NCBI GenBank assembly: GCA_964433025.1
Contig: CAYSPV010000003.1
Coordinates: 1,194 to 65,193 of the forward strand
Direction: 5' to 3'
DNA: 64,000 nt
Source: an uncultured Staphylococcaceae bacterium
Lineage (GTDB): Bacteria; Bacillota_I; Bacilli_A; RFN20; CAG-826
This document shows positions 1,745-20,503 of this stretch, piece after piece. The position numbers and the translations under genes were made by a program. Position 1 is the stretch's first letter, and each line of letters opens with the position of its first letter. The notes below the pieces were generated by a model, which had not been told where the DNA came from, searched no databases, and saw nothing but the letters and a program-made list of their open reading frames with translations.

Positions 1745-1771
1745 TTAGCAGTATCAAGTAAAGAGTGCTAA
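1745..1771. promoter_or_regulatory. CIRCE-like inverted repeat (HrcA operator): TTAGCAGTA-N9-GAGTGCTAA. It overlaps the htpG -35 (TTGATA on the minus strand, plus coordinates 1752-1757) and the -10 TATAAT (1730-1735).
   Basis: The right arm is a perfect match to the CIRCE consensus GAGTGCTAA. The left arm matches TTAGCACTC at 7 of 9 positions. The spacer is exactly 9 nt, and the element lies about 50 bp upstream of the htpG start. Confidence 0.6.
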
Positions 1772-1834
1772 AAGTGATACATTTTACTTAATTTTGTCTC
1801 TATTATCTTTTATAAATGTGTTAAAATGTAAGAC

Positions 1835-2320: not shown

Positions 2321-2756
2321 ATTAAAAGATGCTGAAGAAATAAAAAATGTTTATTATCATTTTGGCTATGAACTAGTAAATGAACTTCCTATAGGAAGTC
2401 ATGTTAAGCTTTCCTTTAGCAAGATGATTAATAATTCCAAATTAAATAAATTAGAAAAACAATACATTAAATTAAATAAGAAATTTCCTATCGCAGGAAC
2501 AATATTTTTAATACTTGGAATTATATTTTTAATTTTAGGATTAACTTTAAATATTGAAGGATTTTTATTTATTAATATTTCATTTTATAGTTTGTGTGGT
2601 TTTATGTTTGCTTTTGCTATATATCTATACATTGGATTTTTAATTATCATGTTAAGGAAAAAGAAATTATTAACTAAATTATTTTTAAAGGCTAATAAGA
2701 TTAATCCAATAACAGTAGCCCAAGTTCCTATTAACACAAACACAGTGGACAATTAA
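2295..2756 (+). CDS. Hypothetical membrane protein, a paralog-like neighbour of the previous ORF (soluble N-terminal domain plus 2 TM helices).
   Basis: Same architecture as the 1835..2320 ORF. The two ORFs overlap by 26 nt. Confidence 0.45.
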   Translation: MLKKSLTVKLKDAEEIKNVYYHFGYELVNELPIGSHVKLSFSKMINNSKLNKLEKQYIKLNKKFPIAGTIFLILGIIFLILGLTLNIEGFLFINISFYSLCGFMFAFAIYLYIGFLIIMLRKKKLLTKLFLKANKINPITVAQVPINTNTVDN

Positions 2757-2826
2757 TTAAAAAAAGAGACATTTTTAGATATTTTTGTGTTTTTATTTAT
2801 AATAAATTATTATAAAATCTTTTCAT

Positions 2827-4230
2827 ATGAGCAATAAAGGTATCTTGCTTCCTATATCTTCTTTAGCAGGCCATCATGGTATTGGTGATATGGGAGTAGA
2901 AGCATTTAAATTTATTAGATGGCTAAATACTAGAGGATTTAACTATTGGCAAATTTTACCTATTAATCCTTTAGGACCAGGATGGTCTCCTTATATGACA
3001 ACTTGTAGTGAGGCTATTGATTTTCGTTATATTGATTTAGATGATTTATATAAGAAAGGTTTATTAGATAAACCTGTAAGAAAATATCATCCAAACAGCA
3101 AAAAAGCTTTATATGTTGAAAGTGGTATTTATAAACAAAAAATCTTAAAAAAAGCTTTTAAAAACTTTAAAAAAGATAATTTAGACAAATTAGAAAAATT
3201 TAAAAAGAAAAATAAATGGGTTATTAAATACGCTTTATTTAATATTTTTTATGAAAAAAATAATAAACTTCCTTGGAATAAATGGCCAAAAGAAGAAATG
3301 TTTTATTTAGAAAATCATAAAGCTTTAGAATATCCCAAACAATATAAAAACCAAGTCTTATATTTAATATTTGAACAATATATTGCCTACTCACAATGGA
3401 ATAAGTTATTGAGGTACGCTCATAGATATAATATTAAAATCATTGGTGATTTACCTTTTTATGTTGGTTATTCTTCTAGTGATTGTTGGGCTAATAAAGA
3501 TGTCTTTAATTTAGATTTTGATACTTATGAACCTAACACTGTCGCAGGTTGTCCACCTGATGGTTTTAGTGAAGATGGACAATTATGGGGTAATCCTACC
3601 TTTAATTTTGAAAAGATGAAAAAAAATAATTATAAGTTCTATGTTAATAGATTAGGGGCAGTAGCAAAGCTATGTGACATAGTAAGATTAGATCATTTTA
3701 GAGCTTTTGATGCTTATTATGCGATACCTAATGGGGCGCCAAATGCAAAGATTGGAGAATGGGTTGAAGGTCCATCTTATGGCTTTTTTGATGCTTATTA
3801 TAAAAAATATCCTAATGCAGATATAATTGCCGAAGATCTAGGCTTTATGACTGATAGTGTCTACGCCTTAAGAGATCATTATAACCTACCTGGAATGATA
3901 ATCTTACAACATGCTTTATTTGATCCTAACACGAAAGATAATGGTCATATGATAGTGTATACTGGCACTCATGATAATTATACGATTAAGTATTGGTATG
4001 ATAATTTAGATGATAACGCAAGAGCTTATATATCTAATATCATAGGAGCAGATCCTAACAAAGATCTATTAAAACAATTTATGGAATATGTATTTAGACG
4101 ACCATCAAAAATAACCATTATTCCTATGCAAGATTATCTATTATTAGGTAATGAAGCTAGGCTGAACGCTCCAGGAACATTTGGAAGTCCTAACTGGGAA
4201 TGGAAATTAAATAAATTACCAAAAAAATAA
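2827..4230 (+). CDS. malQ: 4-alpha-glucanotransferase (amylomaltase, GH77).
   Basis: Carries the GH77 motifs GDLPFYVGYSSSDCWANKDVFNLD, LDHFRAF and WVYTGTHDN-like, and is of the expected length. Confidence 0.85.
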   Translation: MSNKGILLPISSLAGHHGIGDMGVEAFKFIRWLNTRGFNYWQILPINPLGPGWSPYMTTCSEAIDFRYIDLDDLYKKGLLDKPVRKYHPNSKKALYVESGIYKQKILKKAFKNFKKDNLDKLEKFKKKNKWVIKYALFNIFYEKNNKLPWNKWPKEEMFYLENHKALEYPKQYKNQVLYLIFEQYIAYSQWNKLLRYAHRYNIKIIGDLPFYVGYSSSDCWANKDVFNLDFDTYEPNTVAGCPPDGFSEDGQLWGNPTFNFEKMKKNNYKFYVNRLGAVAKLCDIVRLDHFRAFDAYYAIPNGAPNAKIGEWVEGPSYGFFDAYYKKYPNADIIAEDLGFMTDSVYALRDHYNLPGMIILQHALFDPNTKDNGHMIVYTGTHDNYTIKYWYDNLDDNARAYISNIIGADPNKDLLKQFMEYVFRRPSKITIIPMQDYLLLGNEARLNAPGTFGSPNWEWKLNKLPKK

Positions 4231-4248
4231 TAAGGAGGTAAATATATT

Positions 4249-6894: not shown

Positions 6895-7178
6895 TGGACA
6901 CTAGTAGTTTTGATTATCATTTATTATCTTTAATCTTCATAATCTTAGCGGTTATATGTTTTATAATTGCCTTGTTTTTAAGAATGTTTAGACTTAGATC
7001 TTTATCAAGATTATTTATTTTATTTGCTTCTGTTGGGTTACTAGTTTATTCTTGTTTATTTTTTATAAGTTTACCTGGAAGTGATTTAGCCTATGCTGAT
7101 GTTGCCCAGATATTTATATTTATATTTGCTTTACTTCTTACTTTATACAATTTCATTGTATTTATTAAAAAAAGATGA
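6894..7178 (+). CDS. Small hydrophobic membrane protein (94 aa). Its GTG start overlaps the ABC-gene stop (TAGTG), and its stop overlaps the rimO ATG (ATGA).
   Basis: AAGGAG lies 9 nt upstream of the GTG. About three predicted TM helices. Translationally coupled on both sides. Confidence 0.4.
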   Translation: MDTSSFDYHLLSLIFIILAVICFIIALFLRMFRLRSLSRLFILFASVGLLVYSCLFFISLPGSDLAYADVAQIFIFIFALLLTLYNFIVFIKKR

Positions 7179-8470
7179 ATACAGTGGGTTTAATATCTTT
7201 AGGTTGTTGTAAAAATTTAGTGGACTCTGAAATGCTTTTAGGCTACTTTTATGATGCTGGATATAAGATAGTTAATAAACCTGAAGAAGCAGATATTATA
7301 ATTATTAATACTTGTGGATTTATTTTAGATAGTAAAAAAGAATCATTAGCGGCAATCTTTGAAATGGCTAATTACCATAAAAAGATCATCGTAAGTGGAT
7401 GTTTAAGCCAAAGATATTATGATGAATTAAAATCATCTTTAAAAGAAGCTGATTTATTAATTAAAATAGATGATTATGATAATTTAAAAGATATCATAAA
7501 AGAAGTGGACGCTTCTTTTAAAAATGATAAAAACAATGGTTTATCATATTATAGTCGTATATTTGATGATAAAGCTTTTTCAGCTTATTTAAAAATTGGT
7601 GAAGGTTGTTCTAATCATTGTAGTTATTGTGCGATTCCTTTAATAAGAGGAGATTTAAAATCTAGATATAAGCAAGATATTATAAAAGAAGCAAAAATAC
7701 TTGCTAATAAGGGTATAAAAGAACTCGTGGTTATCGCACAAGACACTACTAAATATGGTTTAGATATATATGGAAAAGTAGAAATAGAAAATCTATTAAA
7801 AGAATTATTAAAAATAAAAGAATTTTCTTATATTAGATTATTATATTTATATCCTGATGAGATTAGTGATGAATTAATATCTTTATTTAAAAATGAAGAA
7901 AGATTAACTCCTTATTTTGATATACCTATTCAACATAGTGAAGATAAGATATTAAAGTCTATGAATAGAAGAGGCAATAAGAAGTTTTTATATAATCTTT
8001 TTAATAAAATTAAAAAGGAAGTACCTAACGCTATTCTTAGGACCACCCTTATGGTGGGCTTTCCAGGAGAAACAGAAGAAGATTTTAATAATCTATGTCA
8101 GTTTATTAAAGACATAGAGTTTGATCATTTAGGTGTTTTTACTTTTTCAAAAGAAGAAGATACGAAAGCTTATAATATGAAAAATCAAATAAGAAAAGAT
8201 ATTAAATTAAAAAGAAAAGATGAAATATTAAAAATACAAAGACATATTTCCTATTCAAAAAATAAAAAACATATTAATGAAATAATGAAAGGATTAGTAA
8301 TAGGTAAATCTAAGAATTATTATTTATTAAGAAGCTATTATAACGCTCCTGATGATATAGATGGAAATATATACTTTACAAGTGATGAAATATTAAATAA
8401 TGGTGATATAGTAAATGTTAAAATATCATCTGTATCTGTATATGATCTATATGGTATACACATCAAATAA
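7175..8470 (+). CDS. rimO: Ribosomal protein S12 methylthiotransferase RimO (radical SAM MTTase).
   Basis: N-terminal SLGCCKNLVDSE matches RimO. The radical SAM motif CSNHCSYCAIP and a C-terminal TRAM-like region are present. Confidence 0.8.
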   Translation: MNTVGLISLGCCKNLVDSEMLLGYFYDAGYKIVNKPEEADIIIINTCGFILDSKKESLAAIFEMANYHKKIIVSGCLSQRYYDELKSSLKEADLLIKIDDYDNLKDIIKEVDASFKNDKNNGLSYYSRIFDDKAFSAYLKIGEGCSNHCSYCAIPLIRGDLKSRYKQDIIKEAKILANKGIKELVVIAQDTTKYGLDIYGKVEIENLLKELLKIKEFSYIRLLYLYPDEISDELISLFKNEERLTPYFDIPIQHSEDKILKSMNRRGNKKFLYNLFNKIKKEVPNAILRTTLMVGFPGETEEDFNNLCQFIKDIEFDHLGVFTFSKEEDTKAYNMKNQIRKDIKLKRKDEILKIQRHISYSKNKKHINEIMKGLVIGKSKNYYLLRSYYNAPDDIDGNIYFTSDEILNNGDIVNVKISSVSVYDLYGIHIK

Positions 8471-8477
8471 AATCTTG

Positions 8478-8506
8478 TTGCATTAAGTTCTCAATTATAC
8501 TATATT
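8478..8506 (+). promoter_or_regulatory. Candidate sigma70 promoter for tRNA-Thr: TTGCAT-N17-TATATT.
   Basis: -35 TTGCAT at 8478-8483 and -10 TATATT at 8501-8506, with a 17-nt spacer. The tRNA 5' end is about 11 nt downstream. Confidence 0.45.
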
Positions 8507-8516
8507 TATACGAGAT

Positions 8517-8590
8517 GCCCCATTAGTTAAATGGCATAACGGATCCATGGTAAGGATCTATTCGTAGTTCGATTCTGCGATGGGGCACCA
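8517..8590 (+). tRNA. tRNA-Thr (anticodon GGT), 74 nt with an encoded CCA.
   Basis: Manual cloverleaf: acceptor GCCCCAT/ATGGGGC; D stem GTTA/TAAC; anticodon stem GATCC/GGATC with loop ATGGTAA; T arm CGTAG-TTCGATT-CTGCG; discriminator A plus CCA. Confidence 0.85.
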
Positions 8591-8597
8591 TAAATAA

Positions 8598-8619
8598 GGT
8601 CTTGTAAAAGACTTTTTTT
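8598..8619 (+). terminator. Rho-independent terminator after the tRNA (stem GTCTT / AAGAC, then T7).
   Basis: Hairpin GTCTTgtaaAAGAC followed by TTTTTTT. Confidence 0.55.
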
Positions 8620-8678
8620 GTTGTGTTATGAAGTTCGTTATGTTTCAAAAATAGTGCACCCACATAATAAGACCTTAT

Positions 8679-9653
8679 TTGTTTATAACTTCATGTTATA
8701 ATCAAAACATGAAAAGTAGTGCCACTAAAAGATTTAAAAGTAATCCGTATATTCCTAAATTCATCCTTAAAAATTTTTGTTTTGAAGGTAATAAGATTAA
8801 TTGTTATTCAAAAAAAGAAAATAAAGTCACTATTAAAGATATTGATGAAGCATTTAAAGATTATTTTTTAGAGGCGTTTGATGGATATGATTGGCCTTTG
8901 CTACTTAGTTTAGGGGACGGTATAAAAAAGTATGAAAAAGAGATGTATTCTTTATTTAAAAATAAAATATTAAATAAAAAGAAAAGAATAGTTTTAACAA
9001 AAGCAGAAATTGATAGTATAAAATATTTTTTCGCTTTAATATCGTTTAGAACAAAACTTAATGTAGGTGATTTTTTAGCTTTTTCTAAAGAATCAAAGTC
9101 ATGGTTTACGTGGTGGAGAGATAATGATTACGATGACTATACAGGAGGTTTTTGGCTAAGACATTTAAGTCGAATTTATCAGTGTAGATCGTTAAAAGAA
9201 ATGCTTAATAACGATAAAATTGCTGAACCTTTTAAAGTATATTTCAAATTAAAAACAGAAGGTTTGTTTGGAACTTATCTTTCTTTTATGACGAAATCTT
9301 TTCCAGAAAGTTGTTTTGAATTTTATATAGGTGAAAATTATCCAACTTTTATACCAAGTAAACTAAACCCAGATTTTGTAATATTGGGTATTATTCCTAT
9401 AAGTCCAGAACTTCTTATACTTTTAATTTCAAAAGGCGATGAAAAGAGTCGTGTTTTTGAAGAAGACATTATAAAAGATGCAAAAGATCTATTTATGGAA
9501 CCTACTTATGATGATGACAATGACACTTATATTCACATAATTAAAAATATAAAACATGCATATAATGATTTAATGGCTGAGATTGATATACGCAACGATT
9601 TTAATTATTTTAAAAATCGATATGAGCACATACTTTGGACAGTAAATGAATAA
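8679..9653 (+). CDS. DUF4238-like protein (a defense-island-associated family). The more likely start is the ATG at 8709 (MKSSATKRF...).
   Basis: The N-terminal motif NPYIPKFILKNF resembles the DUF4238 HxVPqFyLrnF signature. The track uses a TTG at 8679. An extended -10 TGTTATAAT (8693-8701) lies 7 nt upstream of ATG 8709, consistent with a leaderless mRNA. Confidence 0.55.
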   Translation: MFITSCYNQNMKSSATKRFKSNPYIPKFILKNFCFEGNKINCYSKKENKVTIKDIDEAFKDYFLEAFDGYDWPLLLSLGDGIKKYEKEMYSLFKNKILNKKKRIVLTKAEIDSIKYFFALISFRTKLNVGDFLAFSKESKSWFTWWRDNDYDDYTGGFWLRHLSRIYQCRSLKEMLNNDKIAEPFKVYFKLKTEGLFGTYLSFMTKSFPESCFEFYIGENYPTFIPSKLNPDFVILGIIPISPELLILLISKGDEKSRVFEEDIIKDAKDLFMEPTYDDDNDTYIHIIKNIKHAYNDLMAEIDIRNDFNYFKNRYEHILWTVNE

Positions 9654-9679
9654 TTATTTCAAATTAATAAATGGTGTTT

Positions 9680-9697
9680 AAAGTCTTATAAGACTTT
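9680..9697. terminator. Perfect 18-bp palindrome AAAGTCTTATAAGACTTT between the convergent DUF4238 and dinJ-like genes (bidirectional terminator).
   Basis: Perfect hairpin flanked by A/T runs, sitting exactly between two convergent stop codons. Confidence 0.55.
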
Positions 9698-9698
9698 C

Positions 9699-9959
9699 TT
9701 ATTTCTTTGCTAATTCTTTATATGCTTCTAGGTTTTCTTCAATTTTTTCTTTTGCAATCTTTTTAACAAGATTATCTGGAAGATATTCTACTGTAGACTT
9801 TTTACGTTTAATTTCAAATGGAACAGCTTGGTCTCTTATAGCTTGTCTAAAAAACATATTAACCGCAGCAGATAATGATAGTCCAAAATCTCCAAATAAT
9901 TCTTCAACTTCATTTTTTAAATCTTTATCTATACGTATTGTGATATTAACATTTCCCAT
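9699..9959 (-). CDS. RelB/DinJ-family (RHH) antitoxin-like protein, 87 aa, with no adjacent toxin gene.
   Basis: MGNVNITIRIDKDLKNEVEELFGDFGLSLSAAVNMFFRQAIRD matches the DinJ/RelB N-terminal RHH. The true start is the internal Met preceded by AAGGAGGG. The track's longer ORF (to 10046) has no RBS. Confidence 0.7.
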   Translation of the reverse strand: MGNVNITIRIDKDLKNEVEELFGDFGLSLSAAVNMFFRQAIRDQAVPFEIKRKKSTVEYLPDNLVKKIAKEKIEENLEAYKELAKK

Positions 9960-10139
9960 AAATTGCCCTCCTTTATACATACAATGTAATACAAATAGTG
10001 GACAAAATAAATATACATAATGTGTATTGTACATATTTTGACACATGGTATTTAAGGAATACCGCTGTGATGAAATATATGCTAATATTTATATAGAGAT
10101 TTATTCTATAAATCTATCTTAGAAAGAATATCATCTATC

Positions 10140-11000
10140 ATGACTAAACAACTAAATCAAAAACTACAAGATTATTTAAATAAAAATGGTTTTAATTTAA
10201 ATTTTGAATTTATCAATTCATATGAAAATGATTATTTTAAAAATACATCATTTACATCTAAATATAGATCATGGAATTTATTAATCTTAACAGGTATAAC
10301 TAAAAGTAATAAATCAGATAATAATAAAGATTATGATATAGATCTTATAAATAAAATAACGAAGTTATTATATGAATCTAATGATGAAGATCTAATTAAT
10401 ATAGCCTGGAATACATTTATTAATTATTGTCATGATGATAATAGATATATTTTATATGCCCCAATGAGTAGGGCATATAATCAATATCAATTAAATAAAG
10501 ATAATATATTTAATAATCACACGAATATATTAGAAACAGATAGATTAATATTAAGACCTAATAATGATAAAGATAATAAGATGTGTATAAACACATCTAA
10601 TCCATCATGTATAAGCTTTAATATCTTTAAAAAAGATAATGATGAATTAATAGGTATATATACATTATCTTATAATGATCTTAATGAAGATTATTTAGAT
10701 ATTAATTATTACTTTAAAGATAAAGAATATATAAAAGAATCTATAGATTTATTAGTGGCCGCTCTTAAAGATAAACAAGTTATATTTTATATAGAAAAAC
10801 ATAAAGACTATATATTTGAAGAATATATGCCTAATCCTATATATCTACGTATAGAAGTTCCTTTTGAAGACGAAGATAGAAATAACATAGCTAAAGCATT
10901 AGGCTTTGACTTAGTGGCCACTAAAACTAATGATAGATATTCTGATGAAGATACAAAATTAGAAACAATTAATACATATTTATTAAAGATAAGAGATTAG
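10140..11000 (+). CDS. Paralog 1 of a 4-member family: unknown N-terminal domain (conserved LLYESxDEDLxNIAWNTF) plus a degenerate GNAT (Acetyltransf_3/RimL-like) domain.
   Basis: LETDRLILRP is the classic Acetyltransf_3 N-terminal strand. C-terminal motifs IGxxxL, YYF and AKALGFDLV follow the GNAT fold. No RxxGxG/A acetyl-CoA motif. Confidence 0.6.
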   Translation: MTKQLNQKLQDYLNKNGFNLNFEFINSYENDYFKNTSFTSKYRSWNLLILTGITKSNKSDNNKDYDIDLINKITKLLYESNDEDLINIAWNTFINYCHDDNRYILYAPMSRAYNQYQLNKDNIFNNHTNILETDRLILRPNNDKDNKMCINTSNPSCISFNIFKKDNDELIGIYTLSYNDLNEDYLDINYYFKDKEYIKESIDLLVAALKDKQVIFYIEKHKDYIFEEYMPNPIYLRIEVPFEDEDRNNIAKALGFDLVATKTNDRYSDEDTKLETINTYLLKIRD

Positions 11001-11096
11001 ATTAAGTATTGAATTTATTTATATAAATATAAATGATTTATATGTTTTTATATTGCCCTTTAAATAGGAAAGGTATATGTAAGGGTCAATAAACCC

Positions 11097-11126
11097 TTGA
11101 AAAAAAAAAAAAAAAAAACGTAGAAT
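11097..11126 (+). promoter_or_regulatory. Promoter of the GmrSD-like gene: TTGAAA -N18- TAGAAT, with the spacer made almost entirely of a 19-nt poly(A) tract (11100-11118).
   Basis: -35 at 11097-11102, -10 at 11121-11126, and SD GTGAGGT before ATG 11158. Preceded by the hairpin AAGGGtcaataaaCCCTT (11081-11097). Confidence 0.5.
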
Positions 11127-11157
11127 TTTTTCTTGTAATATTTAGTGAGGTATAAGC

Positions 11158-12948
11158 ATGGGAAAATTTAGCATTATCAGTAACCCAGTTAGTTTTTTTA
11201 TAAGTAATATTGAAGCTGGAGCTTTAGGACTTCCTGAACTTCAACGTCCTTTTGTATGGGAAGATAAAAAAGCTAGAGATCTATTAAAATCTATGCTAAA
11301 TGGTTTTCCTATTGGCTTTATAATTTTATGGAAACAAGATAGTTCAGTACGAACTAAAAAAGTGAATTTAGAAAGTGGAGGTTATAAAGAACCTAATGAA
11401 GTAATTATTGATGGTCAACAAAGATTAACCTCTCTATATTCAATAATTAAAAATCGTGAAATATTTGATAAAAATTACAAAAAAAGAAAAATCATTATTT
11501 CATATAATCCTAATAATGATGAATTAGAAGTTGGCTCAGCGGCACATAAACAATCTCCAGATTGGATTTATAATATATCCGATATTTTTATAAATGATTC
11601 TTATGATGTATGGAATGCATATGTAAAAAGAAAAATAGAATCACTAGAAAGAAATGGTGAAATCATAACTGAAGAATATAAAGAACAATTAAAAAAGAAA
11701 ATATCCGCTAAGATAACTAATTTTAAAAAAACAATTCTTGATTATGATTTACCATATTTACAAATATATAATGATGTCGATGAAGAAGATGTGGCAAATA
11801 TATTTGTAAATATTAATTCTGGTGGCACTAAATTAAATCAATCAGATTTTATATTAACTCTTGTTTCTGTTCATTATCCTGACGGTAGAACACTAATTGA
11901 AAAATTTTGTAGTGATATGACTAAACATTTAGAAGATGAAAGAGAAGATATTTGTAATCCATTATTTAAATTTGAACCCGCTGATATTATAAGAATAGTG
12001 ATGGCGCTTGGATTTAAAAGAGGACGTTTAGTGTATGGCTATAAATTATTAAGAGGCGCGGATTTTGAAAAAAGAGGCGTTATTGATGAAGAATTAAGAA
12101 ATGAAAGATTTAAGGTTTTTGAACAAACATTAAACAAAGTATTAGATCGTAATAATTTTAAAGAATTTTTAAAATGTATTTATAAAAGCGGATTTGCTCA
12201 TAAAGATCTTCTTAGATCAAGAATAAATATTGTATATGCCTATGCTTTTTGGTTAATTGGAAAATATGATTTTAATATCGATATTTCTACTTTAAGTAAG
12301 ACTATAGCAAAATCATTTTATTTCTTTAATTTAACTTCTAGATATAGTGGTTCATTTGAAAGTTTATTTGAAAGTGAATTAAAAAAATTAGATATAGCAG
12401 ATAAAACAAGTGAATCATTTATAGAAATATTAGAAGAAGGACAAAAATTTAAATTAACTGATGATTTCTTTAATATTGAGCTAATTGGAATATTAAAAAA
12501 TACAGGTACATATTCTAGTGAATATAATACATATTACGCTGCTCAAAATATTTTAGAAGCTAAAGTATTATTTTCCAATCCTCAAATAAGTACACTAACA
12601 GCCTATACCCAACCTTTAAGTGGTAATAGAAAAGCAGTGGAATCACATCATTTATTTCCTAAAAATTATCTACATAATTTAGGATATAGAGAAGTTAATA
12701 TAAAAGATTTAGCAAATAGAGCTCTTGTTGAATGGTCAGATAATATGAAAGCCGAAGATAAAGCACCTAAAGATTATTATCCTGAATTTATTAAAAATAT
12801 GACTGAAGATGAAATAAAAAACATGCTTGATCTTAATGCATTACCTGATAATTGGTATGAAATGGAATATCTTGAATTTTTAGATGAAAGAAGAAAACTA
12901 ATAGCCCAAATAATTCGTAGAGGCTATGAAAAATTAAAAAAAGTTTAA
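11158..12948 (+). CDS. GmrSD-family type IV (modification-dependent) restriction endonuclease: N-terminal DUF262 (ParB-like NTPase) plus C-terminal DUF1524 (His-Me finger).
   Basis: DUF262 motifs LPELQRPFVWE and DGQQRLTSL are present. The C-terminal HHLFPKNYL...VEWSDN matches the DUF1524 HNH-like motif. Length is 596 aa. Confidence 0.8.
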   Translation: MGKFSIISNPVSFFISNIEAGALGLPELQRPFVWEDKKARDLLKSMLNGFPIGFIILWKQDSSVRTKKVNLESGGYKEPNEVIIDGQQRLTSLYSIIKNREIFDKNYKKRKIIISYNPNNDELEVGSAAHKQSPDWIYNISDIFINDSYDVWNAYVKRKIESLERNGEIITEEYKEQLKKKISAKITNFKKTILDYDLPYLQIYNDVDEEDVANIFVNINSGGTKLNQSDFILTLVSVHYPDGRTLIEKFCSDMTKHLEDEREDICNPLFKFEPADIIRIVMALGFKRGRLVYGYKLLRGADFEKRGVIDEELRNERFKVFEQTLNKVLDRNNFKEFLKCIYKSGFAHKDLLRSRINIVYAYAFWLIGKYDFNIDISTLSKTIAKSFYFFNLTSRYSGSFESLFESELKKLDIADKTSESFIEILEEGQKFKLTDDFFNIELIGILKNTGTYSSEYNTYYAAQNILEAKVLFSNPQISTLTAYTQPLSGNRKAVESHHLFPKNYLHNLGYREVNIKDLANRALVEWSDNMKAEDKAPKDYYPEFIKNMTEDEIKNMLDLNALPDNWYEMEYLEFLDERRKLIAQIIRRGYEKLKKV

Positions 12949-13062
12949 ATAATAATTATTTAAAGTAATAAACATATAAAGAAATAAAATCTACACAAAA
13001 TAGATCGTTTTAATAATGTCCAATAAACGGTACATGGTGGTTGAGGACCCCTAATAGTGGCG

Positions 13063-13092
13063 TTGACATAAAAAAAAAAAAAAAAGTATTAT
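13063..13092 (+). promoter_or_regulatory. Promoter of paralog 2: TTGACA -N18- TATTAT, with the spacer dominated by a 16-nt poly(A) tract (13070-13085).
   Basis: Perfect -35 at 13063-68 and -10 at 13087-92. The TAATAGTGG box lies immediately upstream. SD AAGGAGGT precedes ATG 13194. Confidence 0.5.
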
Positions 13093-13193
13093 AAACGCGA
13101 TGACATTTCTAGGTAGGAAATTTACATCTTAAGAAGAACAATTGATTTGTTTTTTGATTGAATAAATCAATAGACCAAGGAGGTACTCGGATT

Positions 13194-14153
13194 ATGTTAA
13201 CTGCTGATTTATTTTTAAAACTTAAGGAGTGCTTAAACGAAGAAAAAGTGGATTTTGGATTATATCCTTTTAATCTTCGTTTTGAGGATAATAAAAATCT
13301 TTCTTGGACTGGTAAATATGTATCATTAAACTTACTAGTGCTTACTGGTATTGCTAAATATAATCTATATCTTTTTAATGAGAAAAGTACAAAAATAGAA
13401 GACTATGATATAGATCTTATAAATCAAATCACTAAGTTATTATATGAATCTGGTGATGAAGATTTAAAAAATATAGCCTGGAATACCTTTTTTGAAGATT
13501 GTCAAGATGATGAAAGATTTATTCTTTATAAGGAAATAAATGCTGCTTTAGATGAAAAAGATGAACTATATGAAAAAGGAATAAATTTTAATCATACCAA
13601 AGAATTAGAAACTGAAAATTTGTTAATAAGACCTCAAAGAACTGAAGATAGTGAAATAATAGCAGATGATTTTATTGAATACGACCTTTTCAACATCCAC
13701 CATACAAGCATAGTTTCTACTTGTGATGAAACATGTTGTAGTTTTAATTTATTTTTAAAATCTAGCAATGATTTAATAGGTGCAATAGCGTTTGATTTCG
13801 GTGAAGATCAACTTGATGACAAAATGATGGATGTACATTACTACTTAATGGAAAAATATAAAAATAATATTGAGTATTTAAAAGAAGGATTGCAAGCAAT
13901 AATTAACGCTTTTAGGGAAAGAAAAGTAGTGTTATATTGTGAAAAACATAAAAAGGCAGTGTTTGAAGAATGGATACCAAACCCTGAATTTTTAGCTATA
14001 GAATGTAAAGATGATGACACTAATAGTAATGAAATAGCTAAATACTTAGGATTTGAATTTACTGGTGGTGATACTGAATTCGTATTTTGGGATGATAAAG
14101 ACGACCTAAGAACAAATAAAACAAACATATATCTATTAAAGGTAAATAAATAA
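13194..14153 (+). CDS. Paralog 2: unknown N-terminal domain plus degenerate GNAT domain. The track's ORF starts at 13158, but the RBS supports a start at 13194 (MLTADLFLKLKECL).
   Basis: Shares the N-terminal MLTxxLxxKLxxxL, the LLYESGDEDLKNIAWNTF block, LETENLLIRP and a C-terminal LGFEF with its paralogs. Confidence 0.6.
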   Translation: MLTADLFLKLKECLNEEKVDFGLYPFNLRFEDNKNLSWTGKYVSLNLLVLTGIAKYNLYLFNEKSTKIEDYDIDLINQITKLLYESGDEDLKNIAWNTFFEDCQDDERFILYKEINAALDEKDELYEKGINFNHTKELETENLLIRPQRTEDSEIIADDFIEYDLFNIHHTSIVSTCDETCCSFNLFLKSSNDLIGAIAFDFGEDQLDDKMMDVHYYLMEKYKNNIEYLKEGLQAIINAFRERKVVLYCEKHKKAVFEEWIPNPEFLAIECKDDDTNSNEIAKYLGFEFTGGDTEFVFWDDKDDLRTNKTNIYLLKVNK

Positions 14154-14237
14154 AAATCTTTAATAGTGCTTTAATTTATAAAGAAAGGAACTATACACTA
14201 TGCTAACATATGAATTACTTGAAAAACTTGAAAAATA
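14151..14237 (+). repeat. Direct repeat copy A. Covers the intergenic end and the first 38 nt of paralog 3. Copy B is 15121-15206.
   Basis: TAAAAA(T/A)CTTTAATAGTGC ... AGAAAGGAACTATACACTATGCTAACATATGAATTACTTGAAAAACTTGAAAA is near-identical in both copies. Repeat period is about 970 bp. Confidence 0.7.
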
Positions 14238-15123
14238 TTTAAGAAGGAAAAAAATAATAACAAATGCGTTTTTTAGTATTAATTATTCTACATCTGAAGG
14301 ATACTGGCTACATACATATGAGTCATGGGAATTATTAGCACTTACTGGGATGGCTAAGTATGCAGTTACACCCGATATTACTCCTAATGATGAAGATATT
14401 GAGTTAGCAAATAAAATCGTAAAATTATTATATGAATCTGGTGATGAAGATTTAAAAAATATTGCTTGGACTACATTTGCTCATTATGGAATTTGGGATG
14501 AAAGGTTTGTTCTTTGTAAGGAAATAACTACAGCTTGTCATAAAAAGGGTTATAAGAAAAATTGTAATCGCACTAAAGATATAGGAACAGATAATTTAAT
14601 AATAAGACGTCAAAATGCTAATGATGCTGAAAAAATTAAAGAAGATTCTGAAAATTGTGGTTCATTTATAGATTTCTTCAAATACTCTTCTGTGAGTGAT
14701 GAAACAGAGATTTGTTTTAGTTTATTTTTAAAAACTAATAATGAACTAATAGGTGCATTAGGATTTGACTTCGGTCCTTATCCAAGTGGTGATAAAGCAA
14801 CTATACATTACTATTTATTGGAAAAATATAAAGATAATGTCGAATATATAAAAGAAGCCTTACAAGCAATAATAAACACTATAAAAGAAAGAAAATTTAT
14901 AATCTATGTACAAAAACATAGATATTTTATCTATGAAGAATACGCACCAGATGTCCAATATTTATTAATTGAAAGTATAGGAGATTCTAGTATTGTTTAT
15001 GATAAATTAGCTAAATATTTAGGGTTTGAATTTGTTGGTGCTAGACTTGATGATTATCTTTTATATGGTCTAGATGAAAAAGATAAAACTAATGTATATG
15101 TATTAAAAATAAAAAATAAATAA
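14200..15123 (+). CDS. Paralog 3: unknown N-terminal domain plus degenerate GNAT domain.
   Basis: MLTYELLEKLEKYL; LLYESGDEDLKNIAWTTF; LIIRRQ; LGFEFVG. RBS is AAAGGAA. Confidence 0.6.
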   Translation: MLTYELLEKLEKYLRRKKIITNAFFSINYSTSEGYWLHTYESWELLALTGMAKYAVTPDITPNDEDIELANKIVKLLYESGDEDLKNIAWTTFAHYGIWDERFVLCKEITTACHKKGYKKNCNRTKDIGTDNLIIRRQNANDAEKIKEDSENCGSFIDFFKYSSVSDETEICFSLFLKTNNELIGALGFDFGPYPSGDKATIHYYLLEKYKDNVEYIKEALQAIINTIKERKFIIYVQKHRYFIYEEYAPDVQYLLIESIGDSSIVYDKLAKYLGFEFVGARLDDYLLYGLDEKDKTNVYVLKIKNK

Positions 15124-15206
15124 AAAACTTTAATAGTGCAAAAAATATTAAGAAAGGAACTATACACTATGCTAACATATGAATTACTTGAAAAACTTGA
15201 AAATTA
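15121..15206 (+). repeat. Direct repeat copy B (5' end of paralog 4 and its upstream region).
   Basis: See copy A. Identical stretches are 14181-14237 and 15150-15206. Confidence 0.7.
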
Positions 15207-16110
15207 TCTAAAAAGTAAAGGATTGAATTATGAATTTAATTCTTACAATTACGAGGATAAAAGTTTTTTCTCTGGGAGAACATGGACTGACAAATATGTG
15301 TCTTGGAATTTGTTGATACTTACTGATATTATTAAAAACAATATATTAAATTCTGATGGCTCACAATCTCCAATATATAATATTGAATTAATAAATAAAA
15401 TCACTAAGTTGTTGTATGAATCAGGCGATGAGGATTTAAAAAATATAGCCTGGAATACTTTTTTTGACCTGTCGGATGATGAAAGATTTATTCTCCATGA
15501 GGAAATGAACTCTGCTTTTAATAAATGGCTTTTCGAACCAAGGGTTACCAATCACACTGATAAATTAGAGACGCCTAATTTAATAATAAAAGCAAATAAT
15601 AAAGAAGATTCCAAAAAATTAAAAGCTTATATAGATAAATATGATTCTGAGAATAAAAGACCATACTATAGAATGATTCGTGACTATGATGCCAACACAA
15701 ATCTCTGTTTTAATTTATTTTTAAAATCTAGTAATAAAATAATCGGTTTTATTGTTTTATATTTTGAAAAATATCCTAATGAAGAAAAAGCATATTTAGA
15801 TTTTTATTTAAAGAAAAAATATCAAAACAAAATAGACTATTTAAAAGAGGCTTTGACAGAAATAATAAAAGCTTTAAATGAAAGAAAAGTCATGTTTTAT
15901 TGCTATAAACACAAACGATATGTACTTGAAGAATGGATTCCTAATATAAAGGTTTTGTTTATAGAAGATGTTAATAGTGCTTCTGGTGAAGTAGCTAAAG
16001 CGACAGGCTTTGAATTTATTGGGACAAACTCTATTTTTGTATTAGACGAAAAATATGACGGTTTTCTTCATGAAATATGTGATATATACGCTTTAAAACT
16101 AAAAGATTAA
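15169..16110 (+). CDS. Paralog 4: unknown N-terminal domain plus degenerate GNAT domain. The track ORF starts at 15136, but the real start is 15169 (its 5' end is identical to paralog 3).
   Basis: MLTYELLEKLENYL; LLYESGDEDLKNIAWNTF; LETPNLIIK; TGFEFIG. Confidence 0.6.
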   Translation: MLTYELLEKLENYLKSKGLNYEFNSYNYEDKSFFSGRTWTDKYVSWNLLILTDIIKNNILNSDGSQSPIYNIELINKITKLLYESGDEDLKNIAWNTFFDLSDDERFILHEEMNSAFNKWLFEPRVTNHTDKLETPNLIIKANNKEDSKKLKAYIDKYDSENKRPYYRMIRDYDANTNLCFNLFLKSSNKIIGFIVLYFEKYPNEEKAYLDFYLKKKYQNKIDYLKEALTEIIKALNERKVMFYCYKHKRYVLEEWIPNIKVLFIEDVNSASGEVAKATGFEFIGTNSIFVLDEKYDGFLHEICDIYALKLKD

Positions 16111-16177
16111 TAAATCTATTAAGAATAATAATATAAGCAGACCAAAAAAAATCATTTAAACAAAGGAGACTAATAAT

Positions 16178-17971
16178 ATGGAAGTAGATAATCAATACAT
16201 AGTTTCAGAATTACAAGCAAGGCAAACTGACACCGCAGCTATTAAAAGAAATGACGAAGCTAAAAAAATAAGAGATGAATTTAGATCTAAATTTGGCCCT
16301 GATGTTTTGAAAAACATTAAAGAAGATGAGGTTATTGCAAAGTTGTTTTCAAAAGAAACTGTAAACCGAGACAGCTTGTTTCATTATCTCGAATACAACA
16401 AAAACAACAATCAAGTATTTGGAGGAATAGCTGGCGGTAATGATAGAAAATGCATTTGTAAATATGATAGAAATAGCAAGACATGGGTTTTTTATGAAAG
16501 TAGTGGGCAAAAAGAAATATCTGAAGATGGCGCAATTAAATACAGCATGGAGATAATAGATACATTAATAAAATCTTGCGAAATAGTAGATAAACATTAC
16601 AGCAACAATGAAATTGATTATTCAAGTTTATATGAAGAATTTGAAAAAGAATTTGCTAATAATGATATTGGTAAAATCGTCATAAAACAACTATGGTTTA
16701 TGAAATATCTCAATATGCTATATCCTAATTTATTAGTTAGTTGGTATAACGAATATATGTTAGATCAACCTATTAAGTACTTGGAAATTTCAGATGGAAA
16801 TATCGATATAACTAGTGAATACAAAAGAAGATTTATTAAAAATGGATCTATCGCAAATTTTTGTAGAAATCATAGTATTTCAACTGATATTTTCTATTAC
16901 CTAATGCAGTGGGAACGAATCCCAGGCGTGAGAATAAAAACAAAAAAAGAAGGAAATAAAGAAATGGAGGATAATATTCAAAAAGCTACTACAAATAACA
17001 ACGAAACACCAATTAATAAAGAAAAAGCTAAAGGCGAAAACCTTATCGTCTATGGTGTCCCTGGTGTAGGTAAAAGCCATTATGTAGATGAAGAATACAA
17101 ATTAAAAGGTGTAAATAAAAATTTCTTTGAAAGAGTAGTGTTCCATCCTGACTACACCTATTCAGATTTTGTAGGACAAATTATGCCTAATGTGGATGAA
17201 AATGGCAAACTAACTTATAAATTTGAACCAGGACCATTTACACGTATTTTAGCAAGAGCAATAAATGATACAGAAAATAAGTATTATCTAGTTATTGAAG
17301 AAATCAACAGGGGTAATGCTGCGGCAATATTTGGTGATATATTCCAATTATTAGATAGAGAAAAAGATGGTACAGGTAGATATGATATAACAAATAAAGA
17401 TATCGCTAAAGAAGTTTATGGTTCTAGTGATAGTAATAAAAAAATACGTATACCATCTAATTTAAGTATTATTGCTACGATGAATACATCTGATCAAAAT
17501 GTATATACATTAGATACTGCATTTCAAAGAAGATGGAAAATGCATTTAATTCCTAATAAGTTTAAAGAAGATAAAACTGATAAAAATTATATCGGAAATG
17601 TCGAATTATTCGATAGTGGTATTACCTGGAGAGAATTCTGTGAAAAAGTTAATAAAAAAATATTAGATAATAATTCTTCATATATCTCTACAGAAGACAA
17701 ACGTTTAGGTATTCATTTTGTAAGTAGAGAAGAAATTGAAAAGACTGAAGCTAAACAAGCTTTTGCAGAAAAAGTCTTAAAATATCTATGGGATGACGCT
17801 TTTAAAAATAATAGAGAAGAATTATTTAATAAGAACTGCGAATCTTTAGAAGATGTCATAGATAAATTTAAAGATAGTAAAGATAATGGATTTGCTGCTG
17901 TATTAAATATTGAGTTTAATGACGTAAACAATGAAAGCAGTGATAATACCACAAATGAAGAATCAAATTAG
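16178..17971 (+). CDS. McrB-like AAA+ GTPase of a McrBC-type type IV restriction system, with an unrecognised N-terminal domain of about 290 aa.
   Basis: Walker A YGVPGVGKSH. McrB signatures IEEINRGNAAAIFGDIFQLLDRE and IIATMNTSDQNVYTLDTAFQRRW are present. RBS is AAAGGAG. Confidence 0.85.
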   Translation: MEVDNQYIVSELQARQTDTAAIKRNDEAKKIRDEFRSKFGPDVLKNIKEDEVIAKLFSKETVNRDSLFHYLEYNKNNNQVFGGIAGGNDRKCICKYDRNSKTWVFYESSGQKEISEDGAIKYSMEIIDTLIKSCEIVDKHYSNNEIDYSSLYEEFEKEFANNDIGKIVIKQLWFMKYLNMLYPNLLVSWYNEYMLDQPIKYLEISDGNIDITSEYKRRFIKNGSIANFCRNHSISTDIFYYLMQWERIPGVRIKTKKEGNKEMEDNIQKATTNNNETPINKEKAKGENLIVYGVPGVGKSHYVDEEYKLKGVNKNFFERVVFHPDYTYSDFVGQIMPNVDENGKLTYKFEPGPFTRILARAINDTENKYYLVIEEINRGNAAAIFGDIFQLLDREKDGTGRYDITNKDIAKEVYGSSDSNKKIRIPSNLSIIATMNTSDQNVYTLDTAFQRRWKMHLIPNKFKEDKTDKNYIGNVELFDSGITWREFCEKVNKKILDNNSSYISTEDKRLGIHFVSREEIEKTEAKQAFAEKVLKYLWDDAFKNNREELFNKNCESLEDVIDKFKDSKDNGFAAVLNIEFNDVNNESSDNTTNEESN

Positions 17972-19178
17972 AATAGAAAAAGATTTAGATTATGTTGGTT
18001 TAAAGAGTGACGATAAAGAATTTATCTTCGCTTTTCCTTATGGTTATAATTTTGGAAATAAAGAAGATCGTATACTAAATAAAGAAGATTATATATTAAG
18101 AAAAGATATTAAGAAGATAATGTCTGTTATTCGTAAATGTAAGAAGGCTAATCCTCTTAGTATAAACGGATCTGAAGATGATAATGATAATCTACCTTTT
18201 GAGGATTATATTTATTTAATTGAGTATTATTTACAGCATAATAGATGTTATTACATGGAAAAAGAAATATCTTATCGTAATGATACAAGAGGTAAGATAG
18301 ATTGGTCTAAAACTATTAAAAGAAATAAACCTTATATACAAGACGATGAAATCGTCTATTTAAAACAAACTATTAGAGAAAGTAAGTTATTAGATAATAC
18401 TTTAATTACAGAATTACATAAATACTGTACGATTGAATCTATTAATAAATTAGGTTTTTTATATGGTGTAGAAACCAAAGATAAAAGTAGTTTAAAAATA
18501 GATGAAAAGAACAAGAACATGTATATTCAAATCATACATAAATACATGTCTAAGACTCATGATAATAATAAGATTAGACTATTCAGTGCGATGATTAATG
18601 TTATAAACAACATCGATACTAAAGATAAATCAGTTAATTATTACACTGAAGAGTTTCGTACTGTATGGGAGTATATGATCGATAATGTCTATGGTATTAA
18701 GAATAAGAATGAGTATTATCCTCATGGTAAATATAAAGGTAAAGAAGAAAAAAAGATTGACGAAGATGAAAAAGAACAAAAAGAAAAACAAAAGACCGCT
18801 TTAAGACCTGATAGTATTATGAAATTAAATAATGAATATTATGTTTTAGATGCTAAATATTATAAAGAAGGTAATTTACCTAATTCATCTGATATAAACA
18901 AGCAAATTACTTATGCTGAAAAAGTAAAATATAAAGAAGAATTAGATGATCTTTATAATGCATTTATATTACCTTATGATGGCAAAGGTGTTGATAACAT
19001 TAAATTTGATACATACGGATATGGTGATTGGTATAAATTAAATAAAAACTATCATCGTGTAGCGGTCATCTATATGGACACTAAATATCTTTTGGATATT
19101 TATAATAAAACTAGTGAGAAGATAAAACATCAAAAAGATTTAGCTAAAGAAATTCAAAAAATACAAGAGGCAAAATGA
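17931..19178 (+). CDS. McrC-like nuclease subunit (PD-D/ExK). It overlaps the McrB gene by 41 nt.
   Basis: C-terminal LRPDSIMKLNNEYYVLDAKYYKEG matches the McrC PD...D-x-K core. Position and coupling to McrB fit. Confidence 0.7.
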   Translation: MKAVIIPQMKNQIRIEKDLDYVGLKSDDKEFIFAFPYGYNFGNKEDRILNKEDYILRKDIKKIMSVIRKCKKANPLSINGSEDDNDNLPFEDYIYLIEYYLQHNRCYYMEKEISYRNDTRGKIDWSKTIKRNKPYIQDDEIVYLKQTIRESKLLDNTLITELHKYCTIESINKLGFLYGVETKDKSSLKIDEKNKNMYIQIIHKYMSKTHDNNKIRLFSAMINVINNIDTKDKSVNYYTEEFRTVWEYMIDNVYGIKNKNEYYPHGKYKGKEEKKIDEDEKEQKEKQKTALRPDSIMKLNNEYYVLDAKYYKEGNLPNSSDINKQITYAEKVKYKEELDDLYNAFILPYDGKGVDNIKFDTYGYGDWYKLNKNYHRVAVIYMDTKYLLDIYNKTSEKIKHQKDLAKEIQKIQEAK

Positions 19179-19300
19179 TCCATATAATAGCTATTTTCAT
19201 TAAATTTTTAGGAAAATTGATACACTTTCTTGGCAAAATGAACACTATTTTTATAAAAATATAAAAAAATATGTTTTTATTATTAAAATAATTAAAATTC

Positions 19301-20503
19301 GTGTGTATAATAATTTCTATGAATTCAATTAAACGCGTAAACGGAATGAAAGTAATTAAGAAATGGAATTTAGGTCTATTCATTTCACTTATATTAATGA
19401 TACTTGCTGTTGGTGGTACAATAGCCCTTTTATATTTACTTCCAATTACAGTATTCTCATATCCTAATCAAGATAGTACTTATGAAGTATATGCTTCTGA
19501 TTTTATATTCTTCGCTGCTCAAGATTGGTTAGGTACAGATAATATTAATGATGCATTCTTTAGATTTAAAAATTATGGTTTAGATGTCTTAATACCTTCT
19601 GATTTAAATAGCATTGTATTTGTTATTATATACGCTATTGCGGGACTTTTAGCAGTAGTAGGTGTATTTGCTGTTATATGTGTAATCATATTCTTATGTG
19701 GTTTATTATTTGGGGTTATTAAAGGCAATTGGAAAGCTATGAAAGTAATGACATGGCTAGTATTTGCTTTTATGTTTATAGTAGCCTTAATATTTGCCGC
19801 TTTAAAGCTATGCTTTATGTATATGCTTACTGAATATGGTGTTGTTTATTATGATATGGATATTTGGAATCTTGTTTATATAGTAGCAGGTCTATTAGTG
19901 TTTGGTATTATCCAATCTATCGTGTACTCTATATGCTTTAAAGATCGTATTTATATTAAAGACGCTAAACGTATATTAGAAGCTCAAAAACAAAGACAAG
20001 AAATGATGCAACAACAAATGTATCCTCAAGGCTTTGCTATGCCAATGCCTATGGTTATGAATGCTCCTAATTATCAAATGGCGCCTACTCAAAATCAAGT
20101 AACACCAACCCAAACTCAACCAATTAAAACTAATCCTACTGTAGTTACTCAAGTTAAATATTCTGCAGGTAAAGGTTTACCTGAACAAATATCTTCTATT
20201 GGTGGACATGCGTTTAGTCAAAACGCTAATCTTGAAGTGGCTATTATTCCTTTAGGAATAAAAGAAATAGGACCATCAGCGTTTTCTAACTGTCCTAATT
20301 TAAAAGTTGTCTCTATTCCTACATCGGTAATTAAGATTGGTTATAATGCTTTCTTTGGCTGTAAGAAATTAGCTAGAATTAATTATGGTGGACGTAAAAA
20401 TGAATGGAAAAACATTACTAGAGGTTCAAATTGGCTCGCTAGTAGCGGTACTTCCGTAGTAGTGTGTGTTGATGGCGCAATCACTGTTAATCCTTATCAT
20501 TAA
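19301..20503 (+). CDS. Polytopic membrane protein with a P/Q/M-rich linker and C-terminal BspA-type leucine-rich repeats (LRR_5). The real start is probably 19346 (MKVIKK), because a TGTGTATAAT -10 ends at 19300.
   Basis: N-terminal TM helices are followed by repeated units such as IPLGIKEIGPSAFSNCPNLKVVSIPTSVIKIGYNAFFGCKKL. Confidence 0.6.
   Translation: MCIIISMNSIKRVNGMKVIKKWNLGLFISLILMILAVGGTIALLYLLPITVFSYPNQDSTYEVYASDFIFFAAQDWLGTDNINDAFFRFKNYGLDVLIPSDLNSIVFVIIYAIAGLLAVVGVFAVICVIIFLCGLLFGVIKGNWKAMKVMTWLVFAFMFIVALIFAALKLCFMYMLTEYGVVYYDMDIWNLVYIVAGLLVFGIIQSIVYSICFKDRIYIKDAKRILEAQKQRQEMMQQQMYPQGFAMPMPMVMNAPNYQMAPTQNQVTPTQTQPIKTNPTVVTQVKYSAGKGLPEQISSIGGHAFSQNANLEVAIIPLGIKEIGPSAFSNCPNLKVVSIPTSVIKIGYNAFFGCKKLARINYGGRKNEWKNITRGSNWLASSGTSVVVCVDGAITVNPYH

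Follow-up and report, generated by a model that had tools for sequence, protein, structure and literature searches.

Four tandem paralogs of a rare two-domain GNAT family with a degenerate acetyl-CoA site beside restriction genes in an uncultured Staphylococcaceae bacterium

A 64,000-nt stretch of DNA from an uncultured Staphylococcaceae bacterium (assembly GCA_964433025.1, contig CAYSPV010000003.1; hereafter the window) carries four intact open reading frames (ORFs) on its + strand that are a lineage-specific tandem expansion of a rare protein family, in which a helical N-terminal domain (N-domain) is joined to a GNAT fold. To judge from the residues at their donor site, the four proteins are most likely no longer acetyl-coenzyme A (CoA)-dependent transferases. 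Close members of the family are a recurrent component of defence islands in uncultured gut Bacilli, and the association with defence is credible but circumstantial. We tentatively read the four paralogs as candidate non-catalytic accessory proteins (target-binding, sensor or regulatory) of the adjacent nuclease defences.

A common two-domain architecture

The four ORFs lie as follows, the first separated from the other three by a gene that Pfam assigns to the GmrSD family, in agreement with a preliminary description of this DNA made from the letters alone.

10140..11000, + strand: paralog 1, 286 aa; helical N-domain and GNAT fold, with a 5-aa deletion in the P-loop
13194..14153, + strand: paralog 2, 319 aa; N-domain at residues 1-127, GNAT at residues ~133-319
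14200..15123, + strand: paralog 3, 307 aa; starts 47 nt after paralog 2
15169..16110, + strand: paralog 4, 313 aa; matches Acetyltransf_3 with 26.3 bits

An AAGGAGG ribosome-binding site is located 8 nt upstream of the ATG at 13194, and we therefore let paralog 2 begin at this codon and not at the TTG further upstream (13158). Each copy consists of an all-helical N-domain of ~125 aa followed by a GNAT fold of the RimL/RimJ/SpeG class. In a MAFFT alignment, paralogs 2-4 share 37-43% amino-acid identity with paralog 1, and paralogs 3 and 4 share 44-47% with paralog 2. The common architecture proposed in the preliminary description, with an identity of 35-50% estimated by eye, was thus confirmed with a slightly narrower range. 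Consistently, the orthologue of paralog 1 from a second metagenome-assembled genome (MAG; GCA_964416045.1, locus L012) matched window paralogs 2-4 by BLASTP with E values from 8e-64 to 2e-39, far beyond chance. All four copies contain the N-terminal block [KQ]I[TV]KLLYES[GN]DEDL[KI]NIAW[NT]TF; the block reported earlier was real in every copy, and its first position had to be widened to [KQ], as this residue is Gln in paralog 2. The rest of the 64-kb window yielded neither another copy nor a fragment of the family.

An AlphaFold2 model of paralog 2, built on a 58-sequence alignment, had a predicted local distance difference test score (pLDDT) of 90.5 and a predicted template modelling score (pTM) of 0.88. 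The model comprises a six-helix N-domain (residues 1-127) and then a domain (residues 143-316) whose elements follow the GNAT order, beta1-alpha1-alpha2-beta2-4-alpha3-beta5-alpha4-beta6/7; the pTM suggests that the two modelled domains hold a fixed mutual arrangement. Foldseek searches of the PDB retrieved RimL (1s7k, 1s7n), RimJ (3igr), SpeG and structural-genomics GNATs with E values of 4e-9 to 1e-6, and the TM-scores on the target were 0.65-0.75 for RimL, RimJ and SpeG. Consistently, the family profile matched PDB sequences of RimJ-like proteins (2fck, 4e-18; 3fbu, 1e-16) as well as SpeG, MccE, phosphinothricin acetyltransferases and AAC(6'). With the Pfam model Acetyltransf_3, paralog 4 scored 26.3 bits (gathering cut-off 25.4) and paralog 2 a sub-threshold 17.4 bits; paralogs 1 and 3 gave no match. 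The Acetyltransf_3/RimL-type fold that had been proposed is therefore supported by the model and by Foldseek, with a weak match in sequence.

A profile search, exhaustive over 1.84 billion cluster representatives, recovered 88 family representatives at E <= 1e-3, of which 31 reached E <= 1e-10; most of the 88 are 280-345 aa long and match across both domains. We aligned 58 full-length members, the four window copies and 54 others. Acetyltransf_3 (PF13302) was matched by 55 of these 58 at E <= 0.01, and no Pfam family covered the N-terminal ~125 residues in any of them. The N-domain was found only joined to this GNAT, barring short N-domain-only matches that resemble fragments; one family protein of 403 aa carries an N-terminal extension. 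Fragments or pseudogenes holding only the N-domain were also seen in other defence islands among the loci of relatives (numbered L001 onward; ~6280-6483 in L018/L026, 181-575 in L019 and 7923-8189 in L020). NCBIfam, PADLOC and PHROGs gave no match for the four paralogs, nor did PADLOC for five relatives. No family matches were found among INPHARED phages, PLSDB plasmids or IMG/VR, and a metagenome scan yielded only two additional loci.

The N-domain, which the preliminary description had called uncharacterised, stayed so in searches of Pfam, of PDB sequences (no match; best E 0.026, a designed repeat protein) and, with its model, of BFVD (nothing at E <= 0.001; best E 2.3). Modelled alone, it is all-helical with a pLDDT of 85. 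Its signature is an invariant Trp-Asn in a compact helical domain. The acidity of the N-domain, whose net charge has a family median of -7 and ranges from -1 to -12 among the window copies, speaks against a DNA-binding role; the window proteins as a whole have isoelectric points of 4.5-5.5. By these profile searches, we describe the proteins as a rare, previously unnamed two-domain family with a new, predicted helical N-domain. RimJ, RimL, SpeG and MccE (PF13302) have the same C-terminal fold, but the present family adds the ~125-aa helical N-domain without a Pfam, PDB-sequence or convincing fold match. In contrast to those enzymes, the four window copies also lack the P-loop and other signature residues and reside in a defence island instead of a housekeeping context.

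Loss of the acetyl-CoA signature and pattern of divergence

In the 54 other aligned members, the P-loop reads YRxxGY[AC]KEA, a canonical R-x-x-G-x-A motif. The corresponding loops of paralogs 2, 3 and 4 read YKNNIEY, YKDNVEY and YQNKIDY and are one residue longer, whereas that of paralog 1 is five residues shorter; the insertion together with the acidic residue is unique to the window copies. The R/Q-x-x-G-x-G/A pyrophosphate loop of GNATs is thus absent from all four. Two further positions that are nearly invariant elsewhere in the family have also changed:

Motif-A Arg, 98% in the 54 other members: no residue in paralog 1, Lys in paralogs 2 and 3, Gln in paralog 4
Motif-A Gly, 91% in the 54 other members: Glu in paralogs 1, 2 and 3, Asp in paralog 4
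Asn275, 96% in the 54 other members: Asp in paralogs 1 and 2, Ser in paralog 3, Asn in paralog 4
Arg142, 96% in the 54 other members: Arg in paralog 1, Asn in paralogs 2, 3 and 4

The preliminary description had noted the missing CoA motif; the comparison with the 54 members adds that its loss is specific to these four proteins. None of them is an intact RimJ/RimL enzyme with a CoA site; finding such an intact enzyme is what had been named beforehand as speaking against the earlier proposal. In a neighbour-joining tree, the four window copies are monophyletic and sister to the P0005-P0013 clade. From this tree, we infer that the signature was probably lost once in this clade, before the duplications. 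The acidic side chain at the pyrophosphate loop of all four copies would point to lost CoA binding and not to drift.

The copies have diverged strongly. Paralogs are ~60% identical in nucleotide sequence, which indicates that the duplications are old; at this distance synonymous sites are saturated and the ratio of non-synonymous to synonymous rates (dN/dS) among paralogs is uninformative. We instead compared orthologues. Locus L012 holds a block that is 96% identical in nucleotides and extends over paralog 1 and the first 366 codons of the GmrSD gene, up to the contig end. Paralog 1 and its orthologue share 95% amino-acid identity, and the GmrSD proteins are 99.5% identical. By the Nei-Gojobori method, dN/dS was 0.16 for paralog 1 (19 synonymous and 15 non-synonymous changes) and 0.028 for GmrSD. 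Paralog 1 is under purifying selection; these values indicate that it is functional and less constrained than GmrSD.

Alignment columns 21-40, 61-80, 161-180 and 301-320 are nearly unconserved among the paralogs, and paralog 1 lacks a 19-residue stretch in columns 161-180 that paralogs 2-4 have. Based on the order of secondary-structure elements in the model, we place columns 161-180 in the predicted alpha1-alpha2 loop of the GNAT fold and columns 301-320 in the beta6-beta7 loop. The acceptor site of GNATs is formed by these two loops. If the placement is right, the copies appear to have diversified where a target would bind. The earlier view of a diversifying family with an uncharacterised N-domain and a degenerate GNAT is supported.

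Columns 81-100, which contain the N-domain block, retain 80-95% amino-acid identity with ordinary codon divergence. Gene conversion was considered as the cause of this conservation and rejected, as the fraction of identical codons is like that of the rest of the gene; the block has therefore been kept by selection on the amino-acid sequence. At the gene borders, 14144-14250 and 15114-15219, each of which runs from the last part of the gene before across the spacer and through the first ~17 codons of paralog 3 or 4, are 93-96% identical in nucleotides, and the gene bodies of the two paralogs are ~59% identical. This pattern indicates that a short stretch around the 5' ends of paralogs 3 and 4 has undergone gene conversion or recombination.

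Defence genes around the paralogs and their relatives

The paralogs are located in an island of ~10.6 kb that follows a tRNA-Thr gene and is bounded by housekeeping genes. A RimO/MiaB-like housekeeping gene (7175-8470) lies just upstream of the tRNA gene, and genes for a BspA-LRR protein, IspD, CNNM transporters, RimP, NusA and IF-2 lie downstream of the island. In addition to the paralogs, the island contains:

8517..8590, + strand: tRNA-Thr (GGU), called by ARAGORN; left border of the island
8679..9653, + strand: DUF4238 protein (Pfam PF14022, E 2e-9)
9699..9959, - strand: orphan RelB/DinJ ribbon-helix-helix gene (TIGR02384, E 1e-16; PF04221)
11097..11126, + strand: promoter-like site upstream of the GmrSD gene, TTGAAA, 18-nt poly-A spacer, TAGAAT; a consensus match only
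11158..12948, + strand: GmrSD-family type IV restriction enzyme (PF03235 GmrSD_N, E 1e-30; PADLOC HEC-05, E 1e-28)
13063..13092, + strand: best promoter-like site of the island, upstream of paralog 2, TTGACA, 18-nt poly-A spacer, TATTAT; 11 of 12 positions match
16178..17971, + strand: McrB-like/LlaJI.R1-like AAA+ GTPase subunit (PF07728 AAA_5, E 7e-13; NF008457 McrB, E 2e-18; PADLOC PDLC03547, E 3e-91)
17931..19178, + strand: LlaJI.R2/McrC-like nuclease subunit (PF09563 RE_LlaJI, E 5e-26; PADLOC PDLC03549, E 2e-55); right end of the island

The tRNA-Thr gene at the left edge suggests an integration or recombination hotspot. A scan of 8000-20000 at Rfam gathering thresholds listed nothing, although ARAGORN calls the tRNA-Thr there. 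The DUF4238 protein is 36% identical to the one encoded directly upstream of the paralog 1 orthologue in L012; a single-gene DUF4238 protein conferred strong T7 resistance in Rousset et al. 2022 (PMC9122126). The RelB/DinJ gene and paralog 1 are transcribed divergently; the former is not paired with a toxin ORF and leaves no room for one downstream, in accord with the earlier remark that the only ribbon-helix-helix gene is unpaired. It is absent from the otherwise 96%-identical L012 locus, where the DUF4238 gene directly precedes paralog 1.

The GmrSD protein has the N-terminal DUF262/GmrSD_N domain of type IV GmrSD enzymes; Pfam gave no match to a C-terminal His-Me/DUF1524 nuclease domain, where a possible HH...N motif was seen by eye only. 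At the right end of the island, an AAA_5 McrB-type GTPase gene is followed by a LlaJI/McrC-type nuclease gene that overlaps its 3' end, the R1-R2 arrangement of McrBC/LlaJI systems. A DNA methyltransferase motif was found in none of the ORFs of >=150 aa in the window. The LlaJI-type pair is either modification-dependent like McrBC or served by a methyltransferase encoded elsewhere. The McrB-like gene starts 68 nt after paralog 4, and the spacers between paralogs 2, 3 and 4 and this gene are 46-68 nt. Because these spacers are short, no terminator-like site was found on the + strand between paralog 2 and the McrB-like gene, and a promoter-like site lies upstream, co-transcription of paralogs 2-4 with R1/R2 is plausible, as far as spacing can tell. 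The two promoter-like sites of the island resemble each other in their long A-rich/poly-A spacers. Outside the island, in a housekeeping neighbourhood, 28387-29580 (- strand) encodes an unrelated protein in which a PP-loop ATPase (ATP_bind_3) is fused to a C-terminal GNAT (Acetyltransf_10).

We then compared the loci of relatives. The hosts of the close clade are gut MAGs labelled Ca. Enterosoma, Ca. Scatoplasma, uncultured Eubacteriales, Bacilli, Clostridiaceae and Firmicutes. In ~13 of 16 distinct close-clade loci, the family member adjoins recognised genes of defence systems or mobile elements; three loci (L015, L017 and L025) have little or no defence content. The neighbours include:

Type I restriction-modification (RM): L001, L032
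SLFN-type helicase with a MazG-like protein: L002
Wadjet JetABCD with an Eco57I-type enzyme: L007
AbiTii: L010
Integrase: L011, L016
GmrSD: L012, L016 (also in the window)
DUF4238: L012 (also in the window)
AAA_14/DUF4143 ATPases: L014, L019, L032
AIPR with an SLFN helicase: L020
Type III RM: L026

PADLOC PDC-S26 (PDDEXK_4) is also among the recurrent immediate neighbours of family members. In L032, HsdS genes or fragments occur several times, on either strand, within the type I RM locus beside the family member (1182-5587); with its adjacent resolvase, the locus looks like a phase-variable specificity shufflon. Genes of ~60 aa encoding DUF4177 recur in the relatives' islands, often directly upstream of the GNAT fusion or a DUF4238 gene (L001 510-689 and 9779-9964; L002 5437-5610; L011 3788-3964; L012 4669-4851; L014 3503-3688).

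The T5orf172 protein, which matches PADLOC PDC-S57 (E 4e-77), is encoded by a gene or remnant upstream of the family member in seven loci, six of them counted as directly upstream. The gene is directly upstream in L011 (1226-2841; stop and start codons overlap) and L026 (5221-6483), and is separated by one or two small genes in L014 (2814-4669) and L001/L002 (7946-10924 in L001). Truncated remnants lie directly upstream in L013 (7774-7971), L016 (1256-1669) and L017 (7598-7987); T5orf172 is often cut down to its C-terminal part. T5orf172 and the GNAT fusion may be a two-gene module, or the island may be under decay. Homologous GIY-YIG proteins flank two distant members, in L021 and L022. Searches of the window with profiles made from the related loci were negative for DUF4177, T5orf172, GIY-YIG and PDDEXK_4 genes. 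PDC-S57, PDC-S26 and DUF4238 proteins are neighbours of family members and not their homologues.

More distant members are found elsewhere. The P0074/P0118 cluster (1991 sequences), with an intact motif, has a conserved neighbourhood of PrmA, RsmE, MiaB-like, HIT and S21 genes, and the distant member P0029 adjoins GdpP, L9 and DnaB. Recurrent placement by known defence genes thus applies to the close clade and not to the whole family, and the housekeeping contexts of distant intact-motif members imply that the family as a whole is a lineage of ordinary acetyltransferases, one clade of which has moved into defence islands. The recurrent defence context that had been anticipated holds in these close relatives (RM types I and III, Wadjet, AbiTii, AIPR, GmrSD, DUF4238 and T5orf172); confinement of the family to non-defence contexts, the other outcome that the preliminary description had named as speaking against it, was not seen.

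Candidate functions

According to the function that we tentatively propose, the paralogs would act as non-catalytic ligand- or protein-binding subunits, that is, as sensors, specificity factors or regulators, with each copy tuned to a different phage-derived target. Paralog 1 would work with DUF4238/GmrSD, and paralogs 2-4 with the McrB/LlaJI-like pair, with which they are probably co-transcribed. The fold and the N-domain block would have been retained while the CoA site was lost and the loops diverged. In a more specific version, which we regard as doubtful, type IV restriction (GmrSD, McrBC/LlaJI-like) would have taken up GNAT pseudoenzymes and, through their amplification and diversification, gained a set of target-recognition or regulatory subunits, for example traps or sensors of different phage anti-restriction proteins or of modified substrates, and the pair of T5orf172 and GNAT fusion in relatives would be the ancestral, catalytically active version. 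The closest conceptual precedent is the (PIN)-GNAT-EVE fusions (Bell et al. 2020, PMC7641849), which are uncharacterised and linked to type I RM and to defence islands. These fusions likewise join a GNAT to a second, non-catalytic domain and occur recurrently by restriction systems. By contrast, the accessory domain of the present family is helical and acidic and lies at the N-terminus, its GNAT has degenerated in the window clade, and Pfam detected no EVE, PUA or PIN domain in any of the 58 members.

Several observations weigh against an accessory role of this kind. The tandem array was seen in this genome only, the relatives being single-copy, and T5orf172, their recurrent partner, is absent from the window. 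The family is in neither PADLOC nor PHROGs. Given the housekeeping context of the distant members, the location in defence islands could reflect hitch-hiking. The proposed link to GmrSD or the McrBC-like pair derives from gene position and spacing, and the loop assignments derive from the secondary-structure order of the model and not from inspected coordinates. GNATs contact CoA mostly via backbone amides. CoA binding may therefore persist in the paralogs, two of which have Lys in place of the motif Arg.

This last point leads to the possibility, which we consider somewhat unlikely, that the paralogs are still active acyltransferases, predicted to use acetyl-CoA or another acyl donor through a non-canonical P-loop. 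In the manner of MccE, RimL, SpeG or aminoglycoside acetyltransferases, they might then modify protein N-termini or small molecules, with bacteriocins, aminoacyl-nucleotides, polyamines and phage proteins as examples of targets, and four copies would widen the substrate range; the variable putative acceptor loops would fit substrate diversification as well. Also in favour of activity are the profile matches to RimJ-like, SpeG, MccE, phosphinothricin acetyltransferase and AAC(6') enzymes, the textbook R-x-x-G-x-A motif in the remaining family, the high confidence with which the fold and the beta4-alpha3 geometry were modelled, and the Lys of paralogs 2 and 3. The donor site itself argues otherwise: in every copy, the Gly of the pyrophosphate loop has given way to an acidic residue, the loop of paralog 1 is short of five residues, Asn275 and Arg142 are each lost in three of four copies, and the combination of changes occurs in none of the 54 other members. 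A clearly unlikely alternative is that an accessory acetyltransferase gene entered a recombination hotspot, was duplicated and now drifts as hitch-hiking or decaying cargo without a defence role. The housekeeping neighbourhoods of distant members, the fragmentary relatives in defence islands (L018/L026, L019 and L020) and the frequent truncation of neighbouring T5orf172 genes are in line with it, as is a non-synonymous rate in paralog 1 that is ~6x that of the adjacent GmrSD gene (dN 0.0216 versus 0.0034). Decay is difficult to reconcile with four full-length ORFs that persist at ~60% nucleotide identity after old duplications, with the purifying selection on paralog 1 (dN/dS 0.16) and with the very strong conservation of the N-domain block. 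The same substitutions, Glu/Asp then Tyr, are moreover found at the lost positions across the four copies, and the genes leading up to the McrB-like gene are closely spaced, as in an operon.

Toxins with a GNAT fold exist, and defence islands are rich in toxin-antitoxin modules. By analogy with CapRel, the GNAT domain might be a translation toxin of the AtaT/TacT type and the N-domain its intramolecular antitoxin or phage sensor; the apparently rigid packing of the two domains (pTM 0.88) and the location in defence islands would be compatible with such a fusion, which we nevertheless judge very improbable. The toxins AtaT, TacT, KacT and ItaT are likewise GNATs of mobile or defence regions, but the window proteins belong to another subclass, are about twice the size and have a degenerate donor site, the intact acetyl-CoA signature of the toxins being lost in all four. 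No PDB chain of these toxins was matched by the family profile to E = 1 or appeared among the top 50 Foldseek matches, and the N-domain matches no antitoxin family. No RHH/DUF1778 antitoxin gene lies in an operon with the paralogs, as the sole such gene (RelB) is on the opposite strand, divergent, and missing at the orthologous locus. The analogy to GNAT toxins or fused toxin-antitoxin proteins drawn in the preliminary description was accordingly not upheld: the proteins are of the RimJ/RimL/SpeG/MccE class, their donor site is lost, and RelB is absent from L012. In the LlaJI operon, two methyltransferase genes occupy the position that corresponds to paralogs 2-4. The paralogs could thus be imagined to write or read a base modification on DNA or RNA, marking self DNA or presenting modified foreign DNA to R1/R2; we rate this as extremely improbable. 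The R1/R2 pair is of LlaJI type and the ORFs of >=150 aa lack a methyltransferase motif, but McrBC-type enzymes function without a methyltransferase, the relatives are not linked to LlaJI-type genes, and the N-domain is acidic. Precedents for GNATs acting on DNA are the predicted GNAT/TGT and GNAT-EVE systems and phage Mu Mom, a DNA-modifying GNAT-fold protein in restriction-related conflict that keeps its P-loop, binds iron as well as acetyl-CoA and carries a basic tail at its C-terminus (PMC7261163). The window copies differ from Mom in that they have lost the P-loop signature and are acidic.

If the paralogs have no role in defence, the finding is a modest one: within a variable region, a degenerate acetyltransferase has expanded in one lineage. 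If they do, it would enlarge the catalogue of defence-island components by a protein family and an N-terminal domain that are both new, and give an example of an enzyme fold turned into a diversified binding module. It would also point to a candidate accessory layer of type IV restriction enzymes, about which little is understood as to how they are regulated and how they interact with phage inhibitors; should the paralogs be subunits of the type IV systems, modification-dependent restriction would have an accessory layer that is new. Together with the GNAT fusion that keeps its motif, T5orf172/PDC-S57 constitutes a testable two-gene candidate in uncultured gut Bacilli.

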